The translations under genes were made by a program, and so were the position numbers. The notes beneath the pieces are model-generated. The model did no database searches. It saw only the letters and a program-made list of their open reading frames with translations, and was not told the DNA's origin. From contig URYH01000002.1 in assembly GCA_900552105.1 (NCBI GenBank), positions 10,652 to 74,651 of the forward strand: a DNA stretch of 64,000 nt, given 5' to 3'. This document shows positions 27,568 to 28,266 of the stretch, piece after piece (the first letter of the stretch is position 1; each line of letters begins with the position of its first letter). Source of the stretch: an uncultured Eubacteriales bacterium (lineage in GTDB: Bacteria; Bacillota; Clostridia; Christensenellales; UBA1242).

Positions 27568-28266
27568 TTAAGCAACATCAACAATAAGCAAATCAACAAG
27601 ATAAAAAACAACCTCTCTTATGCTTGGCGCTTTGTGCTTTTGAAAAGTTTTATCAAACTGCTCCTTCCTGTTTTTATAAACATATGTAATTGCATTTCTA
27701 ATATTTCTTTCAACGCTCGCGACAGAAGCCGAAAATCGACAAGCAAGTTTTGGATACACTTTTCCATTGAACGATTTTAGTGCCGCATTGTCACCAAGAA
27801 TTTGGAGCAAGATTTCTTTAATATATGCGAATCCAAGATGTTTGGTTGAAAAACCATAGCCAATCAACATCTTCGTGATTTTTGAAGACAACTGTTCGTC
27901 TTTTTTTAGTTCTGACCTATTTACAAAATTTTGACAATCAAAAACATCCAAAACTTTATCAAGATTTGAGTAATCAACATCAATTCCACCAACAATTCCA
28001 GAATTGTTTTTTGTTGAAAAAAAGAAAACGCCCTTGAGATTAAAAACTTTTTTGTTTACAAAAGTCTTCAGCATTTCAAACGGAAGACTCACTGTGTCCA
28101 AATCAAAAATTACAAAGTCTGGCTTGAAATTCATAAGTTTTGTAAAAAATTCATCATAATCTTTCGCGTAAGTCACATATGTGTTTGTGCTTTTGATAAT
28201 TTTGTTTAAATTAAACGATAATTCAAAGTTTTTGTTGGAAAATAACAATCCATTTTGGCAGTCCAT
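27568..28266 (-). CDS. spo0A: Spo0A-family transcription factor with an atypical (degenerate) receiver domain
   Basis: The C-terminal half matches the Spo0A_C effector domain: ITKMLIGYGFSTKHLGFAYIKEIL, VYPKLACRFSASVASVERNIRNAI and APSIREVVFYLVD, against Bsu [44 protein letters not shown] and PTNSEFIAMVAD. The synteny argR-recN-spoIVB-spo0A is kept. The N-terminus lacks the DD acidic pair. Confidence 0.8.
   Translation of the reverse strand: MDCQNGLLFSNKNFELSFNLNKIIKSTNTYVTYAKDYDEFFTKLMNFKPDFVIFDLDTVSLPFEMLKTFVNKKVFNLKGVFFFSTKNNSGIVGGIDVDYSNLDKVLDVFDCQNFVNRSELKKDEQLSSKITKMLIGYGFSTKHLGFAYIKEILLQILGDNAALKSFNGKVYPKLACRFSASVASVERNIRNAITYVYKNRKEQFDKTFQKHKAPSIREVVFYLVDLLIVDVA

Follow-up and report, generated by a model that had tools for sequence, protein, structure and literature searches.

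In the papers retrieved for this work, Spo0A is described as the sporulation master regulator of every endospore former and its activation as phosphorylation-dependent. For the phosphorylation of a receiver domain, Mg2+ is held by an acidic pair, and a β5 Lys and a β4 Thr/Ser contact the phosphoryl group (PMC4395418; 10.1101/2025.06.23.661182). In Spo0A of C. difficile, the substitutions D10A, D11A, D56A, S86A and K108A each severely reduced sporulation, and these mutated pocket residues support dimerization (10.1101/2022.02.07.479450). Here we analyze a spo0A-like gene of an uncultured Eubacteriales bacterium (Christensenellales; UBA1242), located at positions 27568 to 28266 on the minus strand of a 64,000-nucleotide stretch of contig URYH01000002.1, which is referred to below as the window. 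In an uncultured lineage of human-gut Clostridia, it is the positional ortholog of spo0A. With a probability of roughly 60%, it encodes a pseudo-receiver Spo0A that is incapable of canonical Mg-dependent His-Asp phosphotransfer and whose control has shifted to expression or to a partner.

Several described systems resemble the window protein in part. In the actinobacterial regulator GlnR and in Streptomyces RamR the conserved Asp serves dimer formation and not phosphorylation, and where pseudo-receivers are constitutively active, regulation acts on their synthesis or sequestration (10.1101/2025.06.23.661182). GlnR and RamR are DNA-binding regulators with a receiver-like domain, as is the window protein; their output domains (OmpR or NarL type) and their biology differ. 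In bacterial pseudo-receivers in general, a class that includes HP1043, ChxR, FrzS and the KaiA N-domain, the largest changes are reported for the β3-α3 and β4-α4 loops (Bourret et al. 2025), likewise the regions altered here. That census is restricted to PF00072-positive domains and makes no mention of Spo0A; the domain studied here escapes PF00072. Aspartate-less receivers (ALR) are likewise degenerate receivers on normal output domains, but are defined by the loss of the phospho-acceptor Asp (PMC4395418); the window protein keeps this residue as D55, so it is not an ALR. In the engineered CheY variant D13K, a Lys likewise replaces the second, metal-binding Asp of the acidic pair, and the phospho-acceptor Asp remains in place. 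This variant is poorly phosphorylated and shows constitutive activity, which does not require phosphorylation; corresponding variants of other regulators act independently of their kinases (PMC4671073; 10.1101/781468). D13K was made in the laboratory as one substitution in a pocket that is otherwise full, with T87 and K109; the change in the window protein is natural, fixed in its clade and accompanied by the loss of the first Asp, the Lys and α4.

The gene and its effector domain

The spo0A-like gene is complete and encodes 232 amino acids, comprising a pseudo-receiver and a Spo0A_C domain. A ribosome-binding site, AGAGGG, lies 4 nt 5' of the ATG. A wrongly annotated start had been named as a possible objection to the initial annotation of this locus. 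The open reading frame is already maximal, which makes an upstream start and any N-terminal extension impossible, and in relatives whose N-termini are about 10 residues longer, the additional stretch brings in no acidic pair. The peptide strings on which that annotation was based (GLLFSNKNFEL, DFVIFDLD, FFFSTK and SASVASVERNIRNAI) were all found in the translation. The protein is about 30 residues shorter than canonical Spo0A.

The C-terminal half (residues 126 to 232 plus the stop codon; 27568 to 27891, minus strand) carries the effector domain of Spo0A for DNA binding and trans-activation. The initial annotation had aligned the last 110 residues with this domain, and Pfam, Protein Data Bank (PDB) sequence and fold matches agree on this assignment. 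Pfam Spo0A_C (PF08769) matched residues 130 to 225 with 53.9 bits (cutoff 25) and was the sole Pfam domain found in the protein. The PDB sequence search returned the Spo0A effector domains 1lq1 (E 1.9e-5) and 1fc3 (E 5e-5), and Foldseek against the PDB superimposed the C-domain on 1fc3_B with a TM-score (TMt) of 0.91 at a root mean square deviation of 1.7 and on 1lq1 with a TMt of 0.86. Because E186, R187 and R190 of the recognition helix, which lies in the region SVASVERNIRNAI, are invariant across the family, DNA binding by this domain is probably retained. The effector fold and the conserved recognition helix ERxIRxAI are shared with canonical Spo0A from B. subtilis and C. difficile (TIGR02875; 1fc3, 1lq1), as are the two-domain layout and the chromosomal position next to argR-recN-spoIVB. 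The NCBIfam equivalog model for Spo0A, TIGR02875, scored 38.2 bits against a cutoff of 200, and the match was confined to residues 112 to 210.

Loss of the phosphorylation pocket

The pocket residues were compared in four independent alignments, namely a MAFFT alignment of 102 sequences, alignment A4, which takes in PF00072-positive Spo0A-type proteins, the hidden Markov model match to 3lte, and an hhalign alignment. All four agreed in placing N11-K12 (codons at 28231 to 28236, minus strand) opposite the Mg-binding acidic pair, which is D10-D11 in Spo0A and D12-D13 in CheY. N13 was placed opposite the Asn of the Spo0A-specific DDN motif, which is kept in the window protein. None of the alignments placed an acidic residue in the β1-α1 loop, which bears out the initial annotation, where the acidic pair had been reported missing. 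Within the close family K12 is invariant and N11 nearly so. The conserved Lys-Pro after β5, also suspected to be missing, is indeed lost: depending on the alignment it falls on D98/Y99 or Y99/S100, so that the canonical Lys is aligned with D98 or Y99 and never with a Lys. No invariant Lys is present in the post-β5 region of the close family.

The putative phospho-acceptor recognized earlier in the string DFVIFDLD is present. D55 (codon at 28102 to 28104, minus strand) aligns with the canonical Asp and is the sole invariant column in the 37-sequence N-terminal alignment A2. For the S/T residue proposed after β4 the outcome was mixed. S84 is present, but its exact register differs by one residue, as it occupies the T/S position in one alignment and follows it by one residue in another. 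It is kept in the close family only, and Ser was found in 33 of 89 wider members.

In comparison with canonical Spo0A, the window protein is without D10, D11, K108, P109 and α4, and its β3-α3 loop is shorter. With three of five catalytic residues gone and two active-site loops remodeled, the earlier suggestion that the protein may not be phosphorylated in the standard way was a sound one. Since D10, D11 and K108 are naturally missing, and mutants in these residues are sporulation-defective, canonical phosphotransfer switching is very unlikely. A pocket of this composition would neither bind Mg2+ nor stabilize the phosphoryl group canonically, so that His-Asp phosphotransfer is most likely not what switches the protein.

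The protein might still be a phospho-switch in which D55 receives a phosphoryl group, from an orphan kinase or from a small-molecule donor, in a remodeled active site. The metal could be held by D57 together with backbone carbonyls, or its positive charge could be replaced by K12, and entry into sporulation would remain phosphorylation-driven, by unusual chemistry. Such a switch would account for D55 being the single invariant N-terminal residue, for the invariance of D57 and T58 in the close family, for S84 at or beside the T/S position and for the conservation of the partner-docking helix α1. It would have to operate in the absence of both metal-binding acids and of the phosphoryl-contacting Lys, with a D57 that is not kept in the wider family and with a remodeled α4-β5-α5 output face. 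Furthermore, single Ala changes at these positions severely reduce sporulation in canonical Spo0A (10.1101/2022.02.07.479450), and an Asp can persist for reasons other than phosphorylation, as in GlnR and RamR (10.1101/2025.06.23.661182). We consider a surviving phospho-switch unlikely.

Fold of the N-terminal domain

The pseudo-receiver domain comprises residues 1 to 110 (27937 to 28266, minus strand) and was delimited with AlphaFold2, Foldseek and hhalign. An AlphaFold2 model from 10 sequences was unreliable, with a predicted local distance difference test score (pLDDT) of 56, and a model from 36 sequences was used instead. This model had a mean pLDDT of 83, with values of 82 to 92 over most of the N-terminal domain. 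The predicted secondary structure is β1 (residues 4 to 9), α1 (14 to 24), β2 (29 to 34), α2 (37 to 47), β3 (51 to 55), α3 (63 to 70), β4 (79 to 83), β5 (95 to 97) and α5 (99 to 108). In the model α4 is replaced by an 11-residue loop, which leaves five strands and four helices, and the α4-β5-α5 output face is thereby remodeled. A low-confidence linker (residues 110 to 121) connects the domain to the helical C-domain. A 5-residue deletion in the β3-α3 loop is common to all family members.

In Foldseek searches the N-domain matched the receivers 3lte_D (TMt 0.66) and CheY4 (TMt 0.63) as well as full-length regulators of the NarL/FixJ/RcsB type, and the KaiA pseudo-receiver was also among the matches. 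At the sequence level, Response_reg (PF00072) gave no match in the spo0A-like protein even at E ≤ 10, and the PDB sequence search gave a single marginal receiver match, 3n53. When the 37-sequence N-terminal profile was compared by hhalign with a profile of 10 canonical Spo0A-type receivers, a probability of 87% and an E value of 3.9e-6 were obtained; the alignment covers β1 to β4 only and does not extend past β4.

Two other assignments of the domain were considered. The string VIFDLDTV resembles motif I of haloacid dehalogenase (HAD)-like proteins (hhhhDxDxT). This reading was rejected, as D57 is not kept outside the close family and the fold and strand order are receiver-like. The N-terminal profile also matched the Walker-B region of ATP-binding cassette (ABC) ATPases (YbiT, PoxtA, EcfA); these matches are weak and reflect a short similarity of the type hhhhD..T..L. 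The ATPase reading was set aside, since matches over the full domain come from receivers (3lte and others) and from hhalign. As judged from alignments and the predicted model, the N-terminal half is a diverged receiver without three of the five catalytic residues and without one helix. Its residue pattern makes it a pseudo-receiver by the current definition (10.1101/2025.06.23.661182), and in the reading favored here it descends from the Spo0A receiver.

Chromosomal position and family

The spo0A-like gene occupies the classical spo0A slot, directly after an argR-recN-spoIVB block at 28361 to 31802 on the minus strand, which defines the canonical spo0A position. NCBIfam models matched all three upstream genes, in accordance with the position claimed for the gene at the outset. 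They are argR (31347 to 31802), recN (29634 to 31337; 442.9 bits, cutoff 407.85) and spoIVB (28361 to 29587; 356.8 bits, cutoff 305.25), all on the minus strand.

Nine close relatives with 50 to 97% identity were found by a word-index search. All of them matched PF08769 only, and S10, K12, N13, D55, D57, T58 and S84, among others, are invariant in them. A second word-index search with the family profile added further members, again PF08769-only. When 1.84 billion cluster representatives were searched with a profile, 2619 matches were returned, and the best full-length ones align with the query end to end in one stretch. Among the matches listed that are 200 to 285 amino acids long and have an N-terminal domain, at least 89 are without the acidic pair and 6 have it (clusters at 50% identity). 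The position of D55 is Asp in 82 of the 89 non-canonical sequences, and 58 of the 89 carry a Lys or Arg at position 11 or 12. D55 is kept in all 58 sequences with a basic residue there, compared with 24 of 31 without one (Fisher p = 4e-4, not corrected for shared ancestry). Position D+2, which is D57 in the window protein, is variable in the wider family and is occupied by S, D, K or N. All subfamilies that were looked up have S/T at position 10, a non-acidic, usually basic pair (NK, KG, KN, KK and others) and D55. From the shared deletions and the shared S10 and N13 we infer a single origin of the pseudo-receiver.

Human-gut metagenomes, Hadza samples among them, contain at least 15 contigs (up to 1.09 Mb long) with a gene for the identical protein, and its neighborhood is the same on each. 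The nearest species-representative genomes are the metagenome-assembled genome (MAG) JBJFDC01, labeled 'Christensenellales bacterium', with 79% identity (locus L001 below), and the human-gut MAG HGM11348 (CAAFWB01). Farther away, four subfamilies with 22 to 27% identity to the query are also adjacent to spoIVB: P0174 (locus L004), P0173 (L006, GCA_054282825.1), P0060 (L009) and P0165 (L014). The conserved order is spoIIIA-asp23-nusB-xseAB-(proS or CNNM)-argR-recN-spoIVB-[spo0A-like gene]-membrane protein of about 210 amino acids; L014 is a shorter contig that shows this order from recN onward only. The argR-recN-spoIVB block also precedes family members in L010 to L013. In the window, the place between xseB and argR is taken by a gene for a 222-amino acid CNNM-like membrane protein (32149 to 32817, minus strand); proS is found there in L004 and L006, and a CNNM-like gene in L009.

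Other subfamilies do not lie next to spoIVB, namely P0177/P0178 (L007/L008, 10001 to 10759), P0175 (L015, 1087 to 1824) and P0107 (L016, 8001 to 8771). Their neighbors are an energy-coupling factor (ECF) transporter and a short-chain dehydrogenase/reductase (SDR), a fragment similar to P-type ATPases together with a 1490-amino acid protein, and a 2984-amino acid protein, respectively. The lineages that harbor these subfamilies may have rearranged the sporulation locus or lost it.

The profile search also returned proteins of 350 to 850 amino acids with three to five tandem Spo0A_C domains and no receiver (P0014, P0019, P0020, P0023, P0025 and others). P0090 (L017, 2272 to 3024) combines a canonical receiver (VLIVDDN...) with Spo0A_C on a short contig. 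Its neighbors are YpsA-like, endonuclease and helix-turn-helix genes, a context that looks mobile-element- or phage-like, so that Spo0A-type regulators appear to travel outside the sporulation locus as well. P0090 was the top match of this architecture to be looked up and was considered as an in-lineage ortholog; it was rejected because of its mobile-element-like context, and is uninformative about a second spo0A.

The pseudo-receiver protein could also be an auxiliary paralog, with a canonical Spo0A encoded elsewhere running sporulation and the copy in the window acting as a modulator, for example as a competitor for 0A boxes. Spo0A_C paralogs do exist in other contexts, as P0090 and the multi-Spo0A_C proteins illustrate, and some members of the pseudo-receiver family are not next to spoIVB. 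Against this, the canonical post-spoIVB slot is occupied by the pseudo-receiver gene here and in four deeply divergent subfamilies, so that a paralog would need to have displaced the original in all of them. In addition, no second Spo0A_C gene was present within the 64-kb window or within the flanks of ±10 kb of related loci. An auxiliary role is accordingly rated as rather improbable.

Selection and the sporulation gene set

The ratio of nonsynonymous to synonymous substitution rates (dN/dS) was determined by the Nei-Gojobori method for the window gene and its ortholog in L001. It was 0.083 for residues 1 to 108, 0.088 for residues 126 to 232 and 0.09 for the whole gene; dS was about 1.3, which is near saturation, so the values are rough. 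By this measure the constraint on the pseudo-receiver is as strong as that on the DNA-binding domain, and the pseudo-receiver is not decaying. The NCBI call for the L001 ortholog (JBJFDC010000007.1, 9401 to 10099) is MGN1162518.1, a protein of 190 amino acids named 'sporulation initiation factor Spo0A C-terminal domain-containing protein'. The start chosen there drops about 44 N-terminal residues, including the β1 strand and the N-K pair.

The initial annotation had listed spoIIA, spoIIIA, spoVA, spoIVB, spoIIM and spoVM in the window. Of these, the first four stood: spoIIAA/spoIIAB/sigF, spoIIIAA to spoIIIAH, spoVAC/AD/AEb and spoIVB were confirmed. No support was obtained for spoIIM, and two crude peptide patterns for spoVM gave no match in the window. 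The genes yunB and ytfJ and two genes for sporulation-type DD-carboxypeptidases are also present. Most sporulation proteins of the window scored 0.8 to 1.3 times their curated cutoffs, with several below the NCBIfam equivalog cutoff, compared with 0.19 times for Spo0A. Because the neighboring sporulation proteins score near or above their cutoffs, the divergence of Spo0A is specific to it and not lineage-wide.

These data also bear on the idea that the receiver is a relic, degenerating in a lineage that is losing sporulation and in which the pathway is unused. A machine-learning tool predicts that many MAGs of the Christensenellales do not sporulate (PMC12536801), and the below-cutoff scores of several sporulation proteins in the window would be in line with such a loss. 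A relic is difficult to reconcile with an N-terminal dN/dS of 0.08, equal to that of the DNA-binding domain, with the absence of frameshifts and with an identical sequence across samples. Moreover, the diverse family keeps S10, N13, D55 and T58, and the spoIIA, spoIIIA, spoVA and spoIVB genes are intact. Degeneration is thus very improbable.

Promoter region and 0A boxes

The region between the spo0A-like gene and spoIVB (28267 to 28360, minus strand) contains a promoter-like site of its own, TTGATT-17-TATTAT with an extended -10 TG, which is preceded by the element ATTTTGTAAAAAA. A scan with the promoter consensus gave 5 promoter-like matches, no more than in shuffled sequence (4.2). The architecture is kept in L001 (9270 to 9400) and in L004, L006 and L009 (9870 to 10000), and the proteins encoded in the latter three are only about 25% identical. 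The conserved pattern reads ATTTTGTAAAAAA ... T(A)GATTTT(A/T)GTAAA ... TGnTAT(A/T)AT. Only two copies of the string TTTGTAAAAA are present in the 64 kb, and each belongs to the spo0A-like gene: one is at 28327 to 28336 (minus strand) and the other, inside the coding region, at 28139 to 28148 (plus strand). The conserved promoter element, of the TTTGTAAAA type, may be the site of a regulator. A comparison with the CodY box AATTTTCWGAAAATT gave 4 mismatches; this loose resemblance was not relied on. The promoter-like site, its conservation and the gene-specific TTTGTAAAAA are consistent with control by abundance or by a partner, and are no proof of it.

No 0A box with at most one mismatch was found within 330 nt upstream of the spo0A-like gene, and TGTCGAA was absent from the same interval in the window, L001 and L009. 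In the window as a whole TGTCGAA was not enriched (9 found compared with 12.5 expected), which is uninformative about function or regulon. One of these copies, at 40589 to 40595 (minus strand), lies about 95 bp upstream of spoIIIAA. The degenerate form TGNCGAA was in excess, with 89 sites compared with 43 expected from shuffles; most of these lie within long open reading frames, the excess likely stems from codon usage, and it says nothing about the regulon.

Downstream gene and other genes of the window

A gene for a 212-amino acid multi-pass membrane protein of no known family starts 47 bp after the stop codon of the spo0A-like gene (26882 to 27520, minus strand). A gene for 204 to 212 amino acids is found in the same downstream position in L004, L006, L009 and L014. 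The copies from the window, L004, L006 and L009 align end to end, with 23 to 24% identity of the latter three to the window copy. The protein had no Pfam or NCBIfam match, and all 64 relatives are unannotated. Its earlier identification as SpoIIM was unsupported by either database, even at E ≤ 10. It is possible, as far as gene order can suggest, that the membrane protein is a partner of the Spo0A-like protein or that the two genes are co-transcribed.

Elsewhere in the window, a gene located between the spoVA cluster and the spoIIA cluster (8101 to 10071, minus strand) encodes a 656-amino acid BspA-type leucine-rich repeat protein (LRR_5, 176.7 bits). Cytidylate kinase (cmk) is encoded twice within 4 kb, at 14452 to 15114 and 17508 to 18164 (both minus strand); the respective TIGR00017 scores are 203.9 and 156.1 bits (cutoff 135.55). 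Between the two copies are a gene for an S1-domain ribosomal protein and an acyltransferase gene.

Discussion

The reading that we favor, a pseudo-receiver Spo0A, can be put as follows. The canonical pocket has been lost by the exchange of the acidic pair for Asn-Lys, the loss of the β5 Lys-Pro, the deletion of α4 and the shortening of the β3-α3 loop. K12 would then pair with the retained Asp55 within the pocket, making the protein a natural counterpart of CheY D13K. Alternatively, D55 may be kept for dimerization, as in GlnR and RamR. Either way the receiver-like domain would be held in one state. The protein would still govern sporulation, and the decision to sporulate might be set by the amount of protein that its own, strongly conserved promoter yields, or by a partner docking on the conserved face of α1.

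Several observations weigh against this reading. The invariance of D55 together with the conservation of α1 would fit continued phosphorylation equally, as α1 is the helix to which kinases and Spo0B dock in canonical receivers. In the close family, a metal could in principle be coordinated by the carboxylate of D57 at D+2, and S84 falls on or beside the T/S position. Three subfamilies do not have spoIVB as a neighbor, and not every member of the family need be 'the' Spo0A. Elsewhere in the genome there may be a second spo0A of the canonical type, the parts read being the window and the flanks of related loci. Finally, no 0A box was found at the spoIIA or spo0A promoters and none was enriched in the window, which leaves the link of the protein to the sporulation genes a putative one.

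A more far-reaching version of the pseudo-receiver reading is offered only tentatively. Across a family-to-order-deep clade of gut Clostridia, including abundant human-gut species, the master regulator of sporulation may have been uncoupled from two-component phosphotransfer. Spo0A would there be a constitutively 'locked' pseudo-receiver with a Lys-Asp pair in its pocket, and the decision would be made through the TTTGTAAAAAA-containing spo0A promoter or through a partner, for example the downstream membrane protein.

Literature searches on Spo0A with pseudo-receiver, degenerate or phosphorylation-independent features, or on Spo0A in Christensenellales, returned no description of such a protein. 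A word search of Davidson et al. 2018 gave no sign of a discussion of degenerate pockets. The importance of the finding depends on the gene being single-copy in each genome and on a true absence of phosphorylation.

There is also a consequence for annotation. There are MAG surveys in which sporulation potential is assessed by filtering for spo0A first (PMC11536998). The equivalog model fails on the window protein and the NCBI name of the L001 ortholog is generic, so that filters of this kind may misclassify an abundant gut lineage. The domain would add a well-defined, physiologically interpretable case to the poorly understood bacterial pseudo-receivers, and one that escapes censuses based on PF00072.

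Endospore formation is taken to have a universal trigger in Spo0A phosphorylation. A conserved ortholog under selection but without a working pocket, in a lineage with spoIIA, spoIIIA, spoVA and spoIVB, would, if the reading is true, mean that sporulation entry can be rewired so as to bypass kinases and phosphorelays, and it would provide a natural system in which to ask what a receiver does besides accepting phosphate. If the locked form of the reading is true, this lineage would harbor the first natural endospore program that is not triggered by Spo0A~P.

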